DNA of 64,000 nucleotides from Actinomycetales bacterium (GCA_002748155.1 PDRO01000008.1:1998-65997); one strand, 5' to 3'; shown: positions 28,436 to 38,080, counted from the stretch's first letter. The notes: generated by a model from the sequence alone, not told the origin. Made by a program: numbers and translations.

Positions 28436-29344
28436 ATGGGTCCAAGTGAGAAGGCGGCGGAGCCAGTGCTTGCGCGGCTGGGGCCGTGCCGCGCCGGAGT
28501 GTGTGGCTCCCCGGTGGAGCATTCGTTTTCGCCGTTGCTGCACCGGGCGGCATACCGGGCCCTCGGATTAACTGACTGGAGCTATCACCGGGCGCGGATC
28601 GAGGCAGACCAGCTGGCCGGCCACGTGGCCGGACTCGACGAGACGTGGCGTGGGCTGTCGCTGACGATGCCGCTCAAGGAAGCTGCCTTCGGCGTCGTGC
28701 ACACGGCATCGCCGCTCGCGGTCCGGGTGGGAGCGATCAATACTCTGGTGCGAGACGACCGTGGTTGGTGGGGTGAGAACACCGACGTCCACGGCATCGT
28801 CGAGGCGTTGCGGGCAGTGGGGGTGCGGCACGCCGATGCTGCGGTGCTCGTCGGTGCTGGAGCAACGGCTCGTTCCGCGTTGGCGGCGCTCGTCCAGCTC
28901 GGTGTGCGACGGGTGACCTTCATAGTGCGTGATCGGGTGCGTCCGGAGACGAGCCGGCTAGCGGAGGAACTCGGCCTTGACGTGGCGGAGTCGCCGATGG
29001 GTGTCTGGCCGGAGGTCTTCGACGTGGTCGTCGGGACGGTCCCGGCCGTGGCATATCACCGTGATCGAGGCCCGGCCGGGATGTCTCCGGTCGAGGCTCT
29101 GCCTCGGGCGGTGCCGGGCAGTGCGGTGCTCGACTGTGTCTACGGTGACGGTCCCAGCCCCCTGCTCCAGGCCGCGGACTCGACCGGGTATGCCGTGGTG
29201 CCGGGCACCGAGATGCTGCTCCATCAAGCTGCCGAGCAGGTGCGACTCATGACCGGGCGGCAGCCACCGGTCCCGGAGATGCGGCACGCCCTTGCCGCGG
29301 CCGTCGACGCAACCGAGAGCGGGACGAGAGGCTCGCGTCGATGA
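28436..29344 (+). CDS. aroE: Shikimate dehydrogenase
   Basis: Motifs present: GSPVEHSFSPLLH, LSLTMPLK, the INTL..W.G.NTD motif, and GAGATARSA as the NADP glycine-rich loop. The start is set to the ATG at 28436. Confidence 0.8.
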   Translation: MGPSEKAAEPVLARLGPCRAGVCGSPVEHSFSPLLHRAAYRALGLTDWSYHRARIEADQLAGHVAGLDETWRGLSLTMPLKEAAFGVVHTASPLAVRVGAINTLVRDDRGWWGENTDVHGIVEALRAVGVRHADAAVLVGAGATARSALAALVQLGVRRVTFIVRDRVRPETSRLAEELGLDVAESPMGVWPEVFDVVVGTVPAVAYHRDRGPAGMSPVEALPRAVPGSAVLDCVYGDGPSPLLQAADSTGYAVVPGTEMLLHQAAEQVRLMTGRQPPVPEMRHALAAAVDATESGTRGSRR

Positions 29345-30021
29345 CCGGGAGCACCGGCCCGTTGTGGCTCGTCATCGGCTGCGCTGTCGCCGGGTTGCCG
29401 ATCGGTTGGTACATGCGTCGTGAGTTGGCCACTGGTGGCTATCGGATCGTCGAAGACGAGAGCGGCCCGTTGCCGCGGGGTCAATGGCTCGTCCTGGCCG
29501 GGGTGCCGGTGTTGTGGGGAGTGCTTGCCTGGCGGGTGGGCACGGCCGCGGACGGCACCCTCCTGCCGGCTCTCTTGCTGTATGCGACTGTCGGGGTGGC
29601 GTTGTCCTGGATCGATGCCGACGTGCATCGGCTGCCGCACGGGCTGACCATGCCGCTGGCGGCCGGTGTCGTGGGACTGCTGTTGGTCAGTGCCGCCCTG
29701 ACCCGGGACTTCGGCTCGTTGGGTCGGGCCGTCACCTGCGCCGGCATCAGCTTCGTCGTCTATCTCGTTCTCGTCCTGCTTTCTTCCGGCAGCTTCGGGA
29801 TCGGCGACCTCGTCCTCGGCACGATCACCGGTCTTCTGCTCGGGTTCCTCGGCTGGCCGCAGCCGCTGCTGGCTATCGCCGCGGGTTTCGTGATCAGCTC
29901 GGTGGTCTTGGTCGTGCGCCTCGTATTGCGCCAGATCACCCTCAAGACCACTGTGGCCTTCGGCCCGTACATCCTGCTCGGTGCCTTGTGGGTTGTGCTG
30001 GCGCACGCGCCGTCACCTTGA
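29341..30021 (+). CDS. Prepilin peptidase (A24 family aspartic membrane protease)
   Basis: It is a polytopic protein with both catalytic Asp contexts (SWIDADVHRLP and GIGDLVLG). The start overlaps the aroE stop (ATGA). Confidence 0.7.
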   Translation: MTGSTGPLWLVIGCAVAGLPIGWYMRRELATGGYRIVEDESGPLPRGQWLVLAGVPVLWGVLAWRVGTAADGTLLPALLLYATVGVALSWIDADVHRLPHGLTMPLAAGVVGLLLVSAALTRDFGSLGRAVTCAGISFVVYLVLVLLSSGSFGIGDLVLGTITGLLLGFLGWPQPLLAIAAGFVISSVVLVVRLVLRQITLKTTVAFGPYILLGALWVVLAHAPSP

Positions 30022-30636
30022 CGGGGGGCCGAACCCCTCGCCATATTCCAGGCATTGTTTCTCGCGGTCTCCAGATCGTGGGGGAGTCTCTCGCCGTGTT
30101 CGGGCACACCGGACAACGCGCCTCAGCCACCGGCCCGGGCTAGCTGCTGGCCCACGCCATCGGCACTGGACGGGCGGCCGGGGTGGTTGAGCAGGTATTG
30201 GCCCGGGCTGATGCGGCCTGCTGCGGGTGGGCTGTCGTCGGTAGCGTGATTCGGCGCCGGGCGTGACCGCCCGGATGACTCCCGCCGTGACCGCCGCGGT
30301 CACTGCGATCAGTGACGACCCGTGGCAGCCCATCACTTACCCTCACGCTATCTGTGGAGTCAATCGGGTCATCGGCACCGAACACTGAGTCTCAGACGCC
30401 GGAGTCGCCGAAACCCGGTTCACCGCCATCACTCACCGCCACCGCGACCAGCAGGTCGACTGTCGGCTGGTCTTACGCCGCCGTCGCAGATACCACCTCC
30501 GCGCATTCGCCTGAGAAACCCCTGGGCCTCCGGTTGTGCCTATTGGTGGGCGAGAAAGTGTATCAGCGATTCGTTTGATGCCTCTTGTTCTGTAGGCGCA
30601 TCCTGCGCCGAGCACTGAGCGAAAGGAGAGGCAGTC

Positions 30637-32769
30637 ATGTCTGCTCGTGCAATGGGTCCCACCTACGCTGGCGGCGCCCAGTCCGTCGTCCGCGACGGAT
30701 ACTCTATTCTTTACCTGCCTGATATCAACAACCAAGAACTCATTGCCACAGGCCAGTCGCCTGTCTACTACTTCGTCCCGAACCAAGTTCGGATGGCGAG
30801 GAAAAACGGTCCAGAAAGCGGCGATTATCTATTCAACCTCATCCGCTTCGCTGGAACTGGTGGCGATGGCGTCATCGGTGGCGCTGGAGAAACGGCAGGC
30901 GGCGTTCTGACATTCTCAGTCACCGGTGATCTACCCCCCAAAACCCGGAAGCAGGCCGAGTCGCATATTACCGAACTAGTGACCTCATGGGACGAGGCGT
31001 TCTGGGGCGCCAAAGCAGCCATGAAGCCCCCCGTATTCCGGCCCGCCATCGTCACTTCCTCGACTACGGCCATCTCCAACGTTGCGCCCACGCCACGAGG
31101 CTTTCCTGTGATGCTGCCAGAAGCGCGCGGGTCCTCCGCCGGGGAGATAGTCTATCGAGGCACGCTCGAGTCCCGCCCTCGCGACAGCAATGAATCGGAC
31201 TCGAATCTCGATCCGTGGTACTGGAAGATGGAAGGTCAAGGAACGGGGTCCATCGACCCTTCGGGCACGCATGCGTTCAGCGGGCTTCTTGGTGTCTATC
31301 CGACCAGCATCTGTTGGGCCGCCTTCCATGGCACAGCATCCCCGCTCATTGTCATACAGAACTACAAACTCAAAGTCTGGTCGCCTTTGATGAGCCTCAA
31401 GATTCATGGCAGCTGGGACAAAATATTCACCCACTTCTCCAAGGCAGCCGGTGCTGGAGTTCTTTGGTTCTCGGCCGGCATCAAGCACGAAATCAACGAA
31501 ATGGTTAAGAAGGGGGACATCGAAGTCGAGATGATAGTCGACCAGACCTTGCCGAACTCTAAGCAGATCGCGAAACAAATGCAAGAACGCAGCGATTTGG
31601 TGTTCACCAAGTTTATGGAGCAGGCCCAACGGGTTATTTTCGACCCCCCGATGCCCCAGGTGGAAGCCGCCCACGCATCCTCAGGTGGTGGCCTTTTTGG
31701 CCTATTCGGCGGTGGTTGTGCGCTCAACTACCGCCGTGACACGACGAGGCTGAGCCTTAGCTACGAGGAGACTTCCCAGTTCGCCTATCTGCAGGATCAC
31801 ACGATCAGCAGTTCGCTAGCGGGAATGTTCGACGAGATGCATGCCGACCCTGAGGCAGAACGCAAGTACTTCCAGACCGTCTACCTCGACGACTGGCCTC
31901 GGCGACTGGCCAGGGTGGTCCGTCCCGTCGTGCCGTGGCGTGATGCGACGGTCGATTTCGTTTCCGTGCAGGTCGGCTACCCCAACACCAACGGGGCCAT
32001 CAACTGGGAAGGGCACAGCTTTTCCGACACCGATGGCAATGATGGGACCTGGAAGTTCCAAACCGCGCAAAAGGCTTTGTCCGACGTATCATCGCCGCCT
32101 GCTAGTTGGAAACCCGACCTCACGTTCGTCAAGCGTAAAGTCCACTTGGCTGAACCACCGAGTGAAATCGAGGATCCGTATCGCCGGGTTCAGATCGAGC
32201 GCAACGTCATCGATCTCGATTCTGGTCCGCGCGGGTCACTCATTAACGACACGACTCTCGAAGTGCGAGCCGATTCGGCAGGCAGGCTCGCTGTCGGGCC
32301 GATCCAGTTGGGTGTGATGCTCACCGACGCGTCCCAGGTCGTCGAAGCCGTTTTCGAAGCCACGGACCCCGACGGAGAGCCACTGGGTCTCGCGCCCGTG
32401 CGGTTCCGGTGGAATCACTCTGATGTAGACACTGACCGGACGTGGACGATCTTCACCGGGGACCCAGATTTCAGGCCTTTCTACCGATACCAAGTCTCGG
32501 TGACCGTGAAGGGAACATTGTTCGAGCCCGGGCGGGCATGGACTGGGCCTTGGGTGAGCGCCAACGGCAACGGCCCCCTGGTCATCGACATCCCGAGGCC
32601 AGGTGACGACGGTGTCGTGACCCGCTCGATTCCTGAAGCTCGGGTGGCGGCTCTTCGCGCCTTGACTCGTGGAACAGCTGAGTCTCATCCAGTTGAGCGC
32701 AACGTGGCTGAAACGACCGGAGTCGCCGAGGACAAGACTGTCGTGCGTTTCCGCAATTATCAGGTGTGA
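30637..32769 (+). CDS. Uncharacterised 710-aa protein (island gene 1)
   Basis: A strong RBS (gaaaggagag) lies 7 nt before the ATG. The long ORF stays open in a region of reduced G+C. By eye I see no signal peptide, no transmembrane helix, no P-loop and no recognised catalytic motif. A Gly-rich hydrophobic patch (SSGGGLFGLFGGGCAL) sits mid-protein. Only 3 nt separate it from gene 2. Confidence 0.8.
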   Translation: MSARAMGPTYAGGAQSVVRDGYSILYLPDINNQELIATGQSPVYYFVPNQVRMARKNGPESGDYLFNLIRFAGTGGDGVIGGAGETAGGVLTFSVTGDLPPKTRKQAESHITELVTSWDEAFWGAKAAMKPPVFRPAIVTSSTTAISNVAPTPRGFPVMLPEARGSSAGEIVYRGTLESRPRDSNESDSNLDPWYWKMEGQGTGSIDPSGTHAFSGLLGVYPTSICWAAFHGTASPLIVIQNYKLKVWSPLMSLKIHGSWDKIFTHFSKAAGAGVLWFSAGIKHEINEMVKKGDIEVEMIVDQTLPNSKQIAKQMQERSDLVFTKFMEQAQRVIFDPPMPQVEAAHASSGGGLFGLFGGGCALNYRRDTTRLSLSYEETSQFAYLQDHTISSSLAGMFDEMHADPEAERKYFQTVYLDDWPRRLARVVRPVVPWRDATVDFVSVQVGYPNTNGAINWEGHSFSDTDGNDGTWKFQTAQKALSDVSSPPASWKPDLTFVKRKVHLAEPPSEIEDPYRRVQIERNVIDLDSGPRGSLINDTTLEVRADSAGRLAVGPIQLGVMLTDASQVVEAVFEATDPDGEPLGLAPVRFRWNHSDVDTDRTWTIFTGDPDFRPFYRYQVSVTVKGTLFEPGRAWTGPWVSANGNGPLVIDIPRPGDDGVVTRSIPEARVAALRALTRGTAESHPVERNVAETTGVAEDKTVVRFRNYQV

Positions 32770-32772
32770 ACC

Positions 32773-35283
32773 ATGAATACGGCAACGGTTGAGTTGGTTC
32801 GTGACGAAAAAGGGCGTGCCAGGCTGTCTGCAACGTTCCTCGTCACCCGCCTGCCCGCGCCCAATGAGCGGCTCGGAGATCTCGTTCACCACGCGAGCGT
32901 GGTGTTCGAGATCCGGGCAATCCCCGCCACCGGATGGCCACGCTGCACGACGCTGAGCGTCGATGGCGGGGAAACGCTCGAGCTGGAGGGCCCCTTCGCG
33001 CAGGCTGCTCTCCACCTGGTGGCCTCCGGTACGGCATCGGGTGAAGTGTTGCGCGCTCTGATACGCGGTTCCGGGGGACCCTTGGTGCGCGCCCATCTTG
33101 TCGGTGACTCGTGGCAGACCAGTTGCGAAGTGCCGCTGGGTGAACTCTTAGCATCTGAAATGCCGGACGATCATTGGTTGCATGTGACTACGACTGACTC
33201 GGACGGCCTCGTCGAAGTGGCACCAGTCCGACGGTCGCGAGGCGATGCTGATCGGTTTGTGACAGCTGGCTTGAAGCGTGCCAACAATGAAATAGTTCCG
33301 ATCAGCGTGGCGCTTCGACCCGACACGGCAAAACCTGTTCCGCTCATCCCGATCACGGCGATTGCCACTCCGCTGGTGACGATAGTTGCATCGCCACCCA
33401 CGCACGGTGGTCCGGTCCTTGGCCCGGTCACCGGGGCGATGCGAGACCGCGACAGTTCGGCTCAAGGCTGGTACCTGCCCGGCTGGAGCTGGGAAGCTCC
33501 AGGCCGGGGTCAGGTCGATCCCCAGGTCGCGCCATTCTCGTTTCGGATACGACGCGAGGGCTACACCATGGACGGTCGAGACGGGATTGTCGCGGTGGTG
33601 AGGTTCCGATTGTCCAAACAGGCTCCTGCTGGTCTTGATGTTTCCGCTCTGCGGGAGTTGCCGGCGCAGTATCGGGTTCAATTGGCCATCCCCTACCGGG
33701 ATGAGTCGGGTGAAGCCCGGATCGAATACCACGCGAGTACCCGGCAAGAGATCAATCAGGACGAGCTGATCGTGGACTTCGAGGTGCGTGACCAATGGGC
33801 GCGCATGGCCTACGGTGCACTCTCCACACCCGGTTTCCAAAGTGCTGGTGCGCAGCTCGTGGTGACCGCGACGTACTCGGGATGGCGCTTGCAGCGTCGA
33901 CGAATCGTTGGGGAGAAGATTGCTGTGGGCCTGGCCGGGCGCGAAGAGTTGCGCCCATCGTTATCGATGTTGGCCGGTGCGCGAGTTAATCTGAAGCCGA
34001 TCGCTCACCGAGTCGACATATCAGCGCTGCTTGAAGTCACGAAATCAGAATTAGTGTGGTCTCAGGTCACAGAGCGGTTGGATTCCATTGAGGTTCTGGT
34101 CGACTGCGCTATCTCGGGTGAGCTCTACCGGATGCTCGACCAGGGCCTGGACACGGCGCTGGGTTGCCAGCCCGTATTCAGTCTGGGGCAAGGGGAACCG
34201 AGGACCCACGAGGTTGTCGACGTGACAGCGGCGAGCGGCCGTGCCACGATCTTGCGTAGCCTGACCCGGCCGCGCCGGTTCTTGGTTGTGCCGGCAACGT
34301 ACTGCATCGGACGCTATGGCCCCGATGTGCAGGACGTGGCCTACCAGCCGTCGTTGTTGCTGCACTCAACCATCGACGTGGATTCCCCAGAGAACATTCG
34401 TTGTGTCATCGCAGCCGGGCTGCAGATGGATGTTCCTGGGCATCTTATGGCTCAGGTTGAGGCGGAGCTCGCTGGCGTTGAAGGCGGACCGGTGGTGCTT
34501 GAGTCACCCTGGGAGGCAGGTCTCATCCCCACTGTGGATTGGGCGTTGCCCAGTGCGACGACGGTAGAGTGCCTCGCCTGCGACACCGGATTCCAGCTCA
34601 TCGTGTCTAGCGACGTGCCTGGTTTCCTCACTCTGCAATCGTTGCTGCGCACTGCCGGAGTCAGTGGACTGGCCACCTATACGCTGCCCGACGGCACGGA
34701 AGTCACTTCCCAGTTGAGGTTGGCGTTGGATCGCGTAGTCGGCCCTTATCCTCACGGTGGAATTCGCCTCAGTGCTAATGGCTCTGAGGTGGAGCTTCGC
34801 AACGAGCTAACGCGGCGGGTTGCTGTTGGCGAATTGCTCCACAGGGGAGTGAAGGTGGCATCGATCGACGAGATTCTCGCCCCCGGTGATAGCACGCGGG
34901 TGGCTTGTTCTGAAACCACTGATCTGACCGTGAATAGTCACGTTGAACCCGGCTCGGAGACCCTGAACGAGATGCGGGCCTACGTCGAGGATCTGCAACT
35001 CAACCTCGTTCTCGTCGCCACGAAGGAGATTCCTCAAGGGGACAGCATCGATGTCGTCGTCACGATGAGAGATGATGGCGCGCGCGCTGAAGTCAGCCTC
35101 AATGACAGCAAACGCCAAGCCGATGTCACATTCACCCTTCCGCTGACCCGCTATCTTGCTGATCCGCAGCTAGACGTAACCACTTCCCGTGGTGGTTTGC
35201 GACTCGAGTCCTTCACATGGGCAGTTCGGACTCAGGGAGTTCTAATTCCACTATCCGTTCCTGAAGAAAGGCCTGTATCATGA
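32773..35283 (+). CDS. Uncharacterised 836-aa protein (island gene 2)
   Basis: The ATG is 3 nt after the gene-1 stop, and its own stop overlaps the gene-3 start (ATGA at 35280-35283). Composition looks beta-rich. I recognise no transmembrane segment, signal peptide or nucleotide-binding motif. Confidence 0.8.
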   Translation: MNTATVELVRDEKGRARLSATFLVTRLPAPNERLGDLVHHASVVFEIRAIPATGWPRCTTLSVDGGETLELEGPFAQAALHLVASGTASGEVLRALIRGSGGPLVRAHLVGDSWQTSCEVPLGELLASEMPDDHWLHVTTTDSDGLVEVAPVRRSRGDADRFVTAGLKRANNEIVPISVALRPDTAKPVPLIPITAIATPLVTIVASPPTHGGPVLGPVTGAMRDRDSSAQGWYLPGWSWEAPGRGQVDPQVAPFSFRIRREGYTMDGRDGIVAVVRFRLSKQAPAGLDVSALRELPAQYRVQLAIPYRDESGEARIEYHASTRQEINQDELIVDFEVRDQWARMAYGALSTPGFQSAGAQLVVTATYSGWRLQRRRIVGEKIAVGLAGREELRPSLSMLAGARVNLKPIAHRVDISALLEVTKSELVWSQVTERLDSIEVLVDCAISGELYRMLDQGLDTALGCQPVFSLGQGEPRTHEVVDVTAASGRATILRSLTRPRRFLVVPATYCIGRYGPDVQDVAYQPSLLLHSTIDVDSPENIRCVIAAGLQMDVPGHLMAQVEAELAGVEGGPVVLESPWEAGLIPTVDWALPSATTVECLACDTGFQLIVSSDVPGFLTLQSLLRTAGVSGLATYTLPDGTEVTSQLRLALDRVVGPYPHGGIRLSANGSEVELRNELTRRVAVGELLHRGVKVASIDEILAPGDSTRVACSETTDLTVNSHVEPGSETLNEMRAYVEDLQLNLVLVATKEIPQGDSIDVVVTMRDDGARAEVSLNDSKRQADVTFTLPLTRYLADPQLDVTTSRGGLRLESFTWAVRTQGVLIPLSVPEERPVS

Positions 35284-36629
35284 CTGGGTATTCACTTCAC
35301 ATCGGCCTGAACGACGTCGATCATTCTGCTTATCCTTCTGACTGGGATCCTTGGCTACCGACTTGCCACAACGATGCCAACGACATGCGGGATATTGCGG
35401 TGTCACAGGGCTTCCTTCCGACCGTGATGCTCGACTCGCAGGCTACCTCCTCGGCTGTGCTCAGCGCCATTGCCGGTCTGGCGAGGAAATGCGGCAGAGG
35501 TGACATCGCACTCATCACATTCGCCGGTCACGGTGGTCAGGTTGACGACTTCAACGGCGACGAGCCTGATCACTATGACGAGACATGGGTTTTGTGGGAT
35601 CGGCAGGTCACGGACGACGAGTTACATGCGGTCTACCGACAATTTCCTGCAGGCAGTCGGATCGTCGTTGTTTCCGACTCGTGCCACAGCGGCACCGTGG
35701 TGCGTTCCAAACTCTCCCTGGCGATGCGTGATGCCATTATTGGAATTCGGGAGGAGATCGGCGAAGAGGTCGTTGTCGAGCCAGGCGTCCCGCGTGCGAT
35801 GCCTGTGGGCACGGCGATTCGTGACGCGCGCGACCGAGCCGAGATTTATGCCATGGCTCAAGCAATCGCGGGGCCCAGGAGTACTAGTTTGGCTGCTGAA
35901 CTGATCCTGATAGCGGGATGCCAAGATCACCAGTTCGCCTTTGAGGGAGAAACGAACGGCGCGTTTACGGGCGCGCTCAAATCGGTTTGGGATGAAGGGA
36001 AATTCCAGGGAGACTATCCGCAGATGGTCAAGCGAATTGCCTCACGGATGCCAAGCGACCAGGTCCCGAATTACTTCACGATCTCAGCCAGTGCGGGGTT
36101 CCAGCGGCAGCGACCGTTCACCGTGGCCGACCCTGCCGCTGGCGGATCGGGTCCGCCGCCCCCGGCACCTCCGGGTGGCCGTCCGACACTCCGGCAGGGT
36201 TCTCGCGGTGAAGATGTGCGTGACTTGCAGCAATTGCTGATCAATCACGGATACTGGCTGGACGTCGACGGTATTTTTGGTGGGGAAACGGCTCGTGCGG
36301 TGCGTGACTTCCAACGTTCGAAAGGCCTGACTGTCGACGGTGTAGTGGGTGCTCAGACGTGGGCAGCGCTGGAGGGGGCAGGCTCCCCGTCGCATCCGAC
36401 GCCCGATCCCACGCCGCCGTCGACATCGTCGCGGCGGACGATCCGTCGCGGTGATAGAGGCGACGACGTCCTATACCTACAGCAACAGCTGAATAGCTTG
36501 GGGTATCGGCTAAGCGTGGACGGGATCTTCGGTTGGGTGACGGAATCGGCGGTCCGATCGTTCCAGAGCTCTCGTGGGCTGACTGCCGACGGGATCGTGG
36601 GACCGATGACGTGGGCTGCGCTTGGTTAA
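35280..36629 (+). CDS. Caspase-like cysteine peptidase (C14/metacaspase fold) fused to two PG_binding_1-type peptidoglycan-binding repeats (island gene 3)
   Basis: The N-terminal ~270 aa carry the caspase dyad in canonical contexts: ALITFAGHGG (His84, nt 35529-35531) and IVVVSDSCHSG (Cys135, nt 35682-35684). A Pro/Gly linker follows. Then come two ~65-aa repeats (LRQGSRGEDVRDLQQLLINHGYWLDVDGIFGGETARAVRDFQRSKGLTVDGVVGAQTWAAL and IRRGDRGDDVLYLQQQLNSLGYRLSVDGIFGWVTESAVRSFQSSRGLTADGIVGPMTWAAL) typical of PG_binding_1. No signal peptide is visible. Confidence 0.85.
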   Translation: MTGYSLHIGLNDVDHSAYPSDWDPWLPTCHNDANDMRDIAVSQGFLPTVMLDSQATSSAVLSAIAGLARKCGRGDIALITFAGHGGQVDDFNGDEPDHYDETWVLWDRQVTDDELHAVYRQFPAGSRIVVVSDSCHSGTVVRSKLSLAMRDAIIGIREEIGEEVVVEPGVPRAMPVGTAIRDARDRAEIYAMAQAIAGPRSTSLAAELILIAGCQDHQFAFEGETNGAFTGALKSVWDEGKFQGDYPQMVKRIASRMPSDQVPNYFTISASAGFQRQRPFTVADPAAGGSGPPPPAPPGGRPTLRQGSRGEDVRDLQQLLINHGYWLDVDGIFGGETARAVRDFQRSKGLTVDGVVGAQTWAALEGAGSPSHPTPDPTPPSTSSRRTIRRGDRGDDVLYLQQQLNSLGYRLSVDGIFGWVTESAVRSFQSSRGLTADGIVGPMTWAALG

Positions 36630-36646
36630 CGCCTGCTCCGGTGGTT

Positions 36647-36682
36647 GAGCCGGGCCGTGCGCGACAGTGAATGGCCCGGCTC
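36647..36682 (+). terminator. Stem-loop immediately after the island operon (possible intrinsic terminator)
   Basis: A perfect 10-bp inverted repeat, gagccgggcc (36647-36656) and ggcccggctc (36673-36682), flanks a 16-nt loop and starts 18 nt after the gene-3 stop. There is no U-tract, which is common in actinobacteria. Confidence 0.45.
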
Positions 36683-36856
36683 GAAATCGTCTCGTACCTG
36701 ACGTCGTTTCATGTGATGGGCAGTTTCGAGAGGCTCGCAGGCATTCGCCTAGCCAGCAGTGGTGGGGTCCGAATCCCGCCGGGGGAGCACAATCACGTCC
36801 CCGTCGCTCACGTCGCACCGCGTGCGACACGTGGACGACGTGAAAGGATCGGGTGC

Positions 36857-38080
36857 ATGCTGCGCTGGCTCACTGCGGGGGAGTCCCACGGTCCTGCCCT
36901 GGTCGCCATCATCGAAGGACTGCCGGCTGGTGTCGAGGTCACGACCACCGATCTCGCTGCCGCGCTGGCGCGTCGGCGCCTCGGCTACGGCCGCGGAGCG
37001 CGGATGTCTTTCGAGCAGGACGAGGTCGAAGTCCTGAGCGGGGTCCGGCACGGACGGACCCTCGGGTCTCCGGTGGCGATCCGGATCGGGAACTCCGAGT
37101 GGCCGAAGTGGCAGACCGTGATGAGCGCGGACCCGGTCGAGGCAGCGGCATACGCGGCAGCTGACGATGTCAATGCCGAGCGTGAGATCGCCCGGAACAA
37201 GCCGCTCACCCGGCCCCGTCCGGGGCACGCCGACCTGGTCGGGATGCAGAAATACGGCTTCGATGACGCCCGGCCGGTGCTCGAGCGGGCCTCGGCCCGG
37301 GAAACCGCGGCCCGGGTGGCCCTCGGCGAGGTTGCCGCCCGGCTGTTGCAGCAGGCCTACGGGGTGCAGCTGGTGTCGCACACGGTCGCCATCGGTGGTG
37401 CCGGTGTCGACGACAGTGCTCCACTGCCAGGCCCCGGGGACGTGGCGGCACTCGATGCCGACCCGGTGCGTGCCTTCGAGACCGCCGGGTCGGCGGCCAT
37501 GGTGGCCGAGGTCGACGCGGCGAAACGGGCCGGCGACACGCTCGGTGGCGTCGTCGAAGTGATCGCCTACGGACTGCCGCCCGGCCTCGGGTCACATGTG
37601 CACTGGGATCGGCGGCTGGACGCCCGACTGGCCGGCGCCCTGATGAGTGTCCAAGCGATCAAAGGGGTCGAAGTCGGCGACGGCTTCCGGACGGCGACCC
37701 GGCGGGGTAGCGCCGCCCACGACGAGATGGAGCGCGGCGCTGACGGGGTCATCCGTCGGCGCACTGGCCGGGCCGGCGGCACCGAGGGCGGCATGTCGGT
37801 CGGCGGGATGCTGCGGGTGCGTGCCGCGATGAAACCGATCTCGACCGTGCCCCGGGCCCTGGGCACCGTCGATGTCGCCAGCGACGAGCCGGCCACCGCC
37901 ATCCACCAACGCTCCGACGTGTGCGCCGTGCCCGCCGCCGGGGTGGTTGCCGAAGCCATGGTCGCGCTCGTGCTCGCCGAGGCGTGCCTGGAGAAGTTCG
38001 GTGGCGATTCGGTCACCGAGACCGCCCGCAACCACACGGCCTACCTGGAGGCCATCCCGGAGCGGATGCGCTCGTGGTGA
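36857..38080 (+). CDS. aroC: Chorismate synthase
   Basis: The canonical N-terminus [25 protein letters not shown] is present, with GRSSARETA-like ([12 protein letters not shown]) and GGMS motifs. A gaaagga RBS precedes the ATG at 36857. The longer ORF-track start at 36671 is rejected. Confidence 0.9.

Follow-up and report, generated by a model that had tools for sequence, protein, structure and literature searches.

A caspase-like protease with peptidoglycan-binding domains and no recognisable export signal, encoded in a three-gene cassette found across bacterial phyla

Background

Caspase homologues joined to a putative peptidoglycan-binding domain have been on record since 2012: in a survey of prokaryotic metacaspases and orthocaspases, 11 of 671 proteins had such a domain, which is suggested to permit binding to the cell wall, with the remark that the protein may be extracellular (Asplund-Samuelsson et al. 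2012, PMC3501461). A recent preprint describes proteases of Pepco modules fused to peptidoglycan-binding domains, which it classes as 'sensors', and defines protease-effector defence modules of the Pepco, EACC1, MBL, alpha/beta-hydrolase and bacterial gasdermin types (Evans et al. 2025, PMC12642450). That a protease can be encoded beside its substrate is already known from gasdermin, EACC1, Pepco and zymogen effectors. Here we analyse gene C, a gene for a predicted caspase-like protease with two peptidoglycan-binding domains, from a 64,000-nucleotide stretch of DNA of an Actinomycetales bacterium (GCA_002748155.1, PDRO01000008.1:1998-65997; 'the window', to which all positions refer). C follows two large genes, A and B, and the three form a cassette that is apparently undescribed, although its combination of caspase and peptidoglycan-binding domain has been catalogued before.

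Results

Gene C encodes a predicted metacaspase-type protease with canonical peptidoglycan-binding modules

The features of gene C are the following (domain borders from hidden Markov model (HMM) mapping):

35280-36629, plus strand: gene C, 449 amino acids, caspase-like protease with two C-terminal PG_binding_1 domains
35280-36152, plus strand: Peptidase_C14 (caspase/metacaspase-like) domain
36141-36185, plus strand: Pro/Gly linker GGSGPPPPAPPGGRP, residues 288-302
36174-36377, plus strand: PG_binding_1 domain 1
36384-36431, plus strand: Pro/Thr/Ser linker SPSHPTPDPTPPSTSS, residues 369-384
36429-36623, plus strand: PG_binding_1 domain 2

Pfam assigns residues 15-266 of C to Peptidase_C14 (PF00656; E 1.6e-22, 80.8 bits against a cut-off of 21.4). 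This is the only catalytic domain in the protein; a peptidoglycan hydrolase domain was not found in the Pfam search. The closest solved structure to the caspase domain is that of GSU0716 (3BIJ, E 4e-63): residues 3-284 of C pair with residues 4-279 of 3BIJ, and the polypeptide hence opens at the first strand of the fold, in agreement with the first-pass annotation, made from the DNA of the window, which had placed the start of the caspase domain at residue 1. His84 lies within FAGHGGQ (codon 35529-35531) and Cys135 within SDSCHSG (codon 35682-35684), and Cys135 pairs with the catalytic cysteine of the yeast metacaspase Yca1 (an alanine in the mutant chain of 4F6P). Judged by these alignments, the His84/Cys135 dyad is intact and of the metacaspase type, and the protease appears to be active. 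D133 (in D-x-C) and D32 (in C-x-N-D) are acidic residues at positions which, from the structure of TbMCA2, we take to be those of the S1 pocket aspartates of metacaspases.

The C-terminal part has two matches to PG_binding_1 (PF01471), with 145 bits in total (E 7.3e-43, cut-off 23). Each accounts for about 72 bits and is close to the Pfam consensus, the better one spanning model positions 1-57 of 57, and the two domains are 61% identical to each other. Their top-scoring families are phage endolysins (PHROG matches up to E 2.5e-43), and the matching PDB sequences (5NM7, 7RUM (endolysin), 4LPQ, 6TCI and 4FET (SleB)) come from endolysin, SleB and L,D-transpeptidase. By both Pfam and PDB matches the tail of C is made of canonical peptidoglycan-binding modules; the two repeats recognised at first reading are thus not an unrelated fold, and both linkers quoted with them are present.

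Neither C nor its relatives have a recognisable export signal

An in-frame stop codon is situated six codons upstream of the ATG of C, so that no hidden N-terminal leader is possible; in-frame stops seven codons before A and two codons before B rule out hidden leaders on these proteins as well. On the Kyte-Doolittle scale the top 19-residue window of C reaches only 1.16, far below values typical of transmembrane helices. Candidate signals for type VII secretion, the twin-arginine translocation (Tat) pathway and lipoprotein export were all discarded for C: motif scans identified no WXG or YxxxD/E motif, no [ST]RRxFL motif and no lipobox. An LPXTG sorting motif was not seen when the C-terminus was read by eye. 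C therefore counts here as a protein that lacks an export signal, as judged by hydropathy, motif scans and structural alignment.

The same holds for the family. Among the 120 best homologues of C, all proteins that have the caspase domain first begin within a few residues of (M)xGYSLHIGLN, and a hydrophobic leader was found in none of them. A sub-class of homologues has the peptidoglycan-binding domain at the extreme N-terminus (MAGEPTLRRGSRG...), and a leader is absent there too. Hydropathy and motif scans identified neither a signal nor a transmembrane segment in A and B of the window, and no leader or transmembrane segment was found in A, B or the protease of the variants from Bacteroidota, Proteobacteria and Mycolicibacterium. 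The absence of a signal peptide, lipobox, Tat motif and transmembrane helix, initially reported for C only, is thus shared by more than 100 relatives. The combination of a signal-less state with wall-binding modules is accordingly a paradox of the whole family rather than of one protein.

C is the third gene of a cassette

The initial reading considered gene C in isolation: its account of the domains and of the missing signal stands, but it missed the genes to which C belongs. B starts 3 nucleotides past the stop codon of A, and the start codon of C shares 4 nucleotides (ATGA) with the stop codon of B; C is coupled translationally to the genes before it, as the last of three genes in a cassette. 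Upstream of A lies a strong ribosome-binding site, AAAGGAGAGG. The remaining parts of the cassette region are:

30022-36860, no strand: inserted island, flanked by the prepilin peptidase gene (29341-30021) and aroC (36860-38080)
30022-30636, plus strand: leader of 615 bp between the prepilin peptidase stop codon and A, without open reading frame in six-frame translation
30637-32769, plus strand: gene A, 710 amino acids, conserved signature protein of the cassette
32773-35283, plus strand: gene B, 836 amino acids, variable partner, predicted chain of beta-sandwiches

A search with a profile of A, restricted to one genome per species, returned 58 loci from Actinomycetota, Bacteroidota, Chloroflexota, Pseudomonadota, Thermodesulfobacteriota, Planctomycetota, an Aminicenantes metagenome-assembled genome (MAG) and Gemmatimonadales. 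Mapping with tblastn and HMMs recovered the order A-B-protease in about 45 of the 58 loci, from at least seven phyla, and A is followed by B and then by a protease at every locus with enough sequence. Gene calls around three homologues of C (L001, L002 and L072), in an Arachnia MAG, in Ruania alkalisoli and on a plasmid of Deinococcus taeanensis, show the trio in unrelated surroundings. The gene orders indicate that the linkage of the protease to A and B is obligate and that the cassette moves horizontally as a unit. Caspase-only relatives in Cellulomonas are not accompanied by A and B.

The third gene varies between loci:

29 loci: caspase with one to three PG_binding_1 domains (Actinomycetota, Chloroflexia, Alpha- and Deltaproteobacteria; includes the window)
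12 loci: caspase with X and PG_binding_1 (as listed: all Bacteroidota, Litorilinea, Deinococcus plasmid)
4 loci: caspase with X (Bacteroidota (L036, L049), an Aminicenantes MAG (L045) and Amycolatopsis (L060))
2-3 loci: Peptidase_S8 subtilase with three to four X (Noviherbaspirillum, Mycolicibacterium; possibly L054)
2 loci: DUF6345 protein (Amycolatopsis)

In one of the subtilase loci (L043), an Rv2525c-type GH25-like domain is present in addition to the subtilase and X. When the third-gene types are placed on a maximum-likelihood tree of A, 11 changes are sufficient to explain their distribution, compared with a mean of 22 after shuffling, and none of 200 shuffles gave a number as low. Caspases with PG_binding_1 domains form essentially one large clade, with the caspase-X-PG_binding_1 type at its base. 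As the type of the third gene follows the phylogeny of A, the peptidoglycan-binding modules have been kept over deep divergence. The tail of the protease is the swappable part of the cassette, yet it nearly always includes a wall-type binding module; since peptidoglycan-binding modules are retained and independent wall-related modules occur besides them, recognition of a wall polymer, or of a derivative of it, is likely to be a selected property of the protease. We infer that selection has kept the tail, as an input or as a means of targeting peptidoglycan, and that it is no relic.

X is a repeat of about 110 amino acids that occurs in one to four copies in protease tails, in both the caspase and the subtilase versions (examples are L043:14961-18674, L044:14748-18197, L031:14132-15862, L040:14110-15837, L045:15076-16401 and L072:8001-9605). 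Its motif is PPxF..YYxVExA...LFD...FYASW...YxxP..W..L...LYYR..SSS..W...AP, and neither Pfam nor PDB sequences contain a match to it.

Several single loci deviate from the common pattern. The subtilase loci L043 (Mycolicibacterium MAG) and L044 (Noviherbaspirillum humi) are sisters on the A tree (support 100/100), a sign of transfer from one phylum to another. The protease of the Mycolicibacterium cassette ends in a domain of about 250 amino acids without family match. In Amycolatopsis xylanica (L041:4680-15554) a DUF6345 protein takes the third position after the A-B pair, and a 1264-amino acid nSTAND1 NTPase with a beta-propeller is encoded two genes upstream, the only STAND-type neighbour among the loci examined. 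At L071:7217-9474 the domain order is reversed (PG_binding_1, then caspase) in a signal-less protein without A and B; its neighbours are a 232-amino acid Gly-rich protein with hydrophobic stretches and a 69-amino acid open reading frame, and this may be a different module with a small effector.

Proteins A and B have no recognisable family

No match to A or B was found in Pfam, NCBIfam, PADLOC or PHROGs, and profile searches with both against PDB sequences gave no match either. Scanning 31 homologues of A and 10 longer family members against the family models returned nothing significant. The two proteins differ in conservation: A is 63% identical to its Ruania homologue over the full length, and 225 homologues across phyla are 50-70% identical, while B shares 34% identity with its Ruania homologue (range 21-47% across loci) and a word search finds only 14 homologues of it. 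The profile of A matches 402 representative clusters among 1.84 billion proteins, many of which are fragments; by these counts the A family is rare and self-contained.

The AlphaFold2 model of A has a mean predicted local distance difference test score (pLDDT) of 66.5 and a predicted template modelling score of 0.41. Helices and long beta-hairpins make up its N-terminal half, together with a Gly-rich loop at residues 336-369, and immunoglobulin (Ig)-like sandwiches form the C-terminal half. The model of B (mean pLDDT 70.8) is a chain of Ig/FN3-like beta-sandwiches with disordered linkers. Bacterial Ig-like beta-sandwiches mostly act outside the cell. Foldseek searches with both models against PDB and viral models returned only generic matches (Ig/FN3, pilin, adhesin) at TM-scores around 0.1-0.2; we did not accept that A is a pilin or that B is an alpha-2-macroglobulin, and no fold family can be named for either protein from the Foldseek and profile searches.

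Two stretches of these proteins deserve mention. The loop of A at residues 336-369 (31642-31743) is predicted to be disordered and yet is among the most conserved stretches of A across phyla: its consensus is F(D/E)PPxPxVEAAxASSGGG..PWGxGxALKYRRD, with R366 and D368 invariant, and it is a candidate for a processing site or a membrane-active element. The N-terminus of A (MGPTYAGG...) is also strongly conserved, from residue 5 onwards. The dibasic PVRRSR in a disordered linker of B (residues 151-158) may be a cleavage site, though only as a local candidate: it is kept in the nearest clades and in one Mycolicibacterium locus, and PVRRxR was rejected as a universal cleavage motif for this reason.

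The cassette is a recent insertion in this genome

The cassette lies among housekeeping genes: alaS, a YceG/MltG gene, aroE and the prepilin peptidase gene upstream, and aroC, aroK and aroB downstream. Its G+C content is 0.59-0.62 across 30-36 kb in the composition profile, in comparison to 0.66-0.72 in the flanks. Gene A was found in none of 40 related genomes searched, 19 of them from the same genus, and in three genomes of the same genus the site is empty: aroC begins only about 40-105 bp after the prepilin peptidase gene. The low G+C content, the empty site and the absence of A from relatives together indicate that the 6.8 kb at 30022-36860 are an insertion, and the cassette is a recent arrival in this genome (the assembly is about 75% complete, in 31 contigs).

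No mobility gene was found within the island. An imperfect 14-nucleotide direct repeat, GGTGGTTGAGC(A/C)GG, brackets it at 30182-30195 and 36640-36653, about 160 bp past the prepilin peptidase stop codon and 11 bp past the stop codon of C, respectively; the repeat may mark the insertion boundary or may be due to chance, as it is too short to tell these apart. No open reading frame with a transmembrane segment (a holin or another small membrane protein) is present in 30022-36860, and there is no prophage context, given that A and B have no PHROG match and the flanks are housekeeping genes. A scan for promoters and terminators gave nothing decisive.

To describe the surroundings of the cassette elsewhere, we took a census of 134 open reading frames that flank it at about 50 loci. 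Among the Pfam families, CHAT (6), LuxR-type response regulators (5-6), BTAD regulators (3) and extracytoplasmic function (ECF)-type sigma factors (3) recur. PADLOC matches are single ones to mad3/mad8, SduA and AbiLi, plus generic matches of the CARF/AriA type, and with so few and mostly generic matches a location in defence islands was rejected: by its neighbours the cassette is not part of defence islands, and regulators often adjoin it. In that clade of Propionibacteriales which is nearest to the window, a sigma70 gene (ECF-type), a 159-amino acid gene and a CHAT gene precede A-B-C on the same strand (L001:1376-4910, with equivalents of the sigma70-CHAT arrangement in L003, L005, L008, L010, L011 and L014). 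The CHAT protein of this clade has about 820 amino acids, weak TPR matches and, with CHAT, a second caspase-like protease. The CHAT matches of the census stem from this clade, and the window has no sigma70-CHAT genes; the 615-bp leader was considered as a remnant of them and shows no similarity.

Discussion

What brings a protease without export signal into contact with peptidoglycan? The first-pass annotation had offered two answers, export by an unrecognised route and intracellular sensing of muropeptides. Its premise of a signal-less protein with peptidoglycan-binding domains is correct. The cassette encodes no membrane protein and occurs in hosts with one and with two membranes, which argues against dependence on a secretion system specific to a phylum. 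Without such a system, the protease would meet peptidoglycan either inside the cell or, as sacculus, after permeabilisation.

We favour the latter, with a rough probability of 0.4: C may be a latent cytoplasmic protease that, like an endolysin, meets or senses peptidoglycan only upon a breach of the membrane and then processes A and/or B. C would wait in the cytoplasm with the membrane between protease and ligand, and would reach the sacculus only once the membrane is permeabilised; protein A, a phage holin or some other injury could do this. Multivalent attachment to the polymer of the wall would bring the caspase domains close together and allow their activation by proximity, and the activated protease could cut A and/or B or proteins associated with the wall. 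The cell may die or lyse as a result, or A and B may be released to act outside it. Phage endolysins are likewise signal-less and holin-dependent, and induced proximity is the classical mode of activation for caspase-type proteases. Binding to the wall after a breach is favoured by the copy number of the modules (one to three) and their flexible linkers, by the other repeats or the GH25-like domain that accompany or replace them, by the similarity of the PG_binding_1 domains to wall-binding domains of endolysins above all others, by the construction of A and B from folds that are mostly extracellular in bacteria and by flanks without defence-island context. Variation in copy number, flexible linkers, exchange of modules and likeness to endolysins are typical of avidity binding to a polymer by proteins that stay in the cytoplasm until a membrane lesion occurs.

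Several points weigh against this scheme. The cassette encodes no holin, transmembrane protein or peptidoglycan hydrolase, which makes the breach step hypothetical, and activation after membrane failure has no obvious benefit, unless release of A and B is the purpose. The models of A are of moderate confidence and have no recognisable pore-forming fold, and the PVRRSR candidate of B is conserved only close to the window. Caspase-type proteases are not known to act on peptidoglycan.

The absence of signals from all three proteins in every phylum, with no membrane component or holin encoded, is in line with action of C in the intact cell, and an intracellular sensor is possible without being probable. 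The PG_binding_1 domains would bind soluble molecules derived from peptidoglycan (recycled muropeptides, accumulating UDP-MurNAc-peptide or lipid-linked precursors of the inner leaflet) and relieve an inhibition of the caspase, which would then cleave A and/or B as latent effectors; envelope damage by phages or antibiotics would in this way be coupled to a proteolytic response. Characterised bacterial caspase-like proteases do act in the cytoplasm on neighbouring effectors, fusions of PG_binding_1 and caspase also exist in reversed order without A and B and beside small Gly-rich proteins (L071), and the fast evolution of B and slow evolution of A resemble the asymmetry of sensor and effector. 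Peptidoglycan-binding domains are moreover listed among the 'sensors' fused to such proteases in PMC12642450. However, a domain that is present in one to three copies and is joined or replaced by up to four X or by a GH25-like domain is unlike an allosteric site for a small ligand, A and B match no known effector family and the flanks, with a handful of mostly generic PADLOC matches among the 134 open reading frames, are not defence islands. We also know of no PG_binding_1 domain that serves as a cytosolic receptor for small molecules.

A bolder version, which we consider unlikely, sees peptidoglycan receptor and caspase united in one polypeptide as a counterpart of the cytosolic peptidoglycan sensing that leads to caspase activation in animals. 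Contact of the PG_binding_1 domains with misplaced peptidoglycan (muropeptides, precursors or the sacculus through a breach) would switch the caspase on, and the caspase would turn its two large partners into a machinery for death or release.

Export from living cells by a dedicated, non-lytic and signal-independent route, with a wall-anchored protease that matures the Ig-like A and B, is improbable in our view. It would be in line with the Ig-like arrays, Pro/Thr linkers and peptidoglycan-binding modules, which are typical of extracytoplasmic proteins, and the conserved N-terminus of A could be a recognition motif; but no specialised secretion system is common to the hosts, which include Actinomycetota, Bacteroidota, Chloroflexota, Pseudomonadota, Deinococcus and others, the cassette has no gene for a translocator, and C has neither a type VII motif (WXG or YxxxD/E) nor a visible LPXTG. 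Equally hard to credit is a repurposed fold that no longer binds peptidoglycan and instead docks the protease on A or B or masks its active site: the PG_binding_1 fold does serve as pro-domain of matrix metalloproteinases in animals and the tail is the variable, partner-specific part of the cassette, but the two domains of C, with 145 bits together, are close to the Pfam consensus and most similar to those of endolysins, and the GH25-like domain in the tail of one subtilase variant leaves the wall as common denominator.

Bacterial caspase homologues are known to trigger death by cutting neighbouring effectors. Through the cassette, a caspase may have a direct link to the cell wall, a link kept through deep divergence and through exchanges of protease and modules. 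If contact with peptidoglycan is the trigger or the target, envelope integrity would be tied to regulated proteolysis in a compact unit of three genes. If A and B are a toxin or adhesin set released by lysis, the cassette would be one more of the few extracellular systems outside phages that do without a signal. And if receptor and caspase are indeed united in one protein, it would represent a new, NTPase-independent class of bacterial systems for damage sensing and cell death, present in at least seven phyla. Independently of the mechanism, the analysis defines two large and widespread families (A and B) and the repeat X, for which no Pfam model or structural relative was found.

Comparison with known systems

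Our literature search returned no description of the A-B-protease cassette, of the A or B family or of domain X, and this includes searches for DUF6345. The metacaspases with peptidoglycan-binding domain in PMC3501461 have the same combination of two domains as C; in the passages searched, that study does not cover the missing signals of this class or the A-B partner genes, and it assigns no function. GSU0716 of Geobacter sulfurreducens has the same GHGGQ and DSCHSG motifs as C and also begins at the first strand of the fold, but is a stand-alone caspase homologue without peptidoglycan-binding tail.

In the arrangement of its tail C resembles phage endolysins (phiKZ gp144, 3BKH; PHROG 2649/1493/1224), which are signal-less too and have terminal PG_binding_1 domains in variable number on flexible linkers. 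It differs from them by a caspase-type protease in the place of a peptidoglycan hydrolase and by the lack of a holin and of prophage context, and an endolysin/holin lysis cassette was rejected on these grounds. The pro-domain of matrix metalloproteinases is likewise a PG_binding_1-type fold on a protease; there, the domain is N-terminal and diverged, while those of C are C-terminal, in tandem and near the consensus.

The protease-effector modules of PMC12642450 are also among the closest known systems. C scores only 37.8 bits with the model of EACC1-type caspases, far below the cut-off of 140. A and B are outside the ten effector families of that study, two large partners take the place of one small effector, and the flanks of the cassette have no defence-island context. 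What the cassette has in common with these modules is its organisation: a protease is encoded beside the proteins that it presumably cleaves, and caspase and subtilase are interchangeable.

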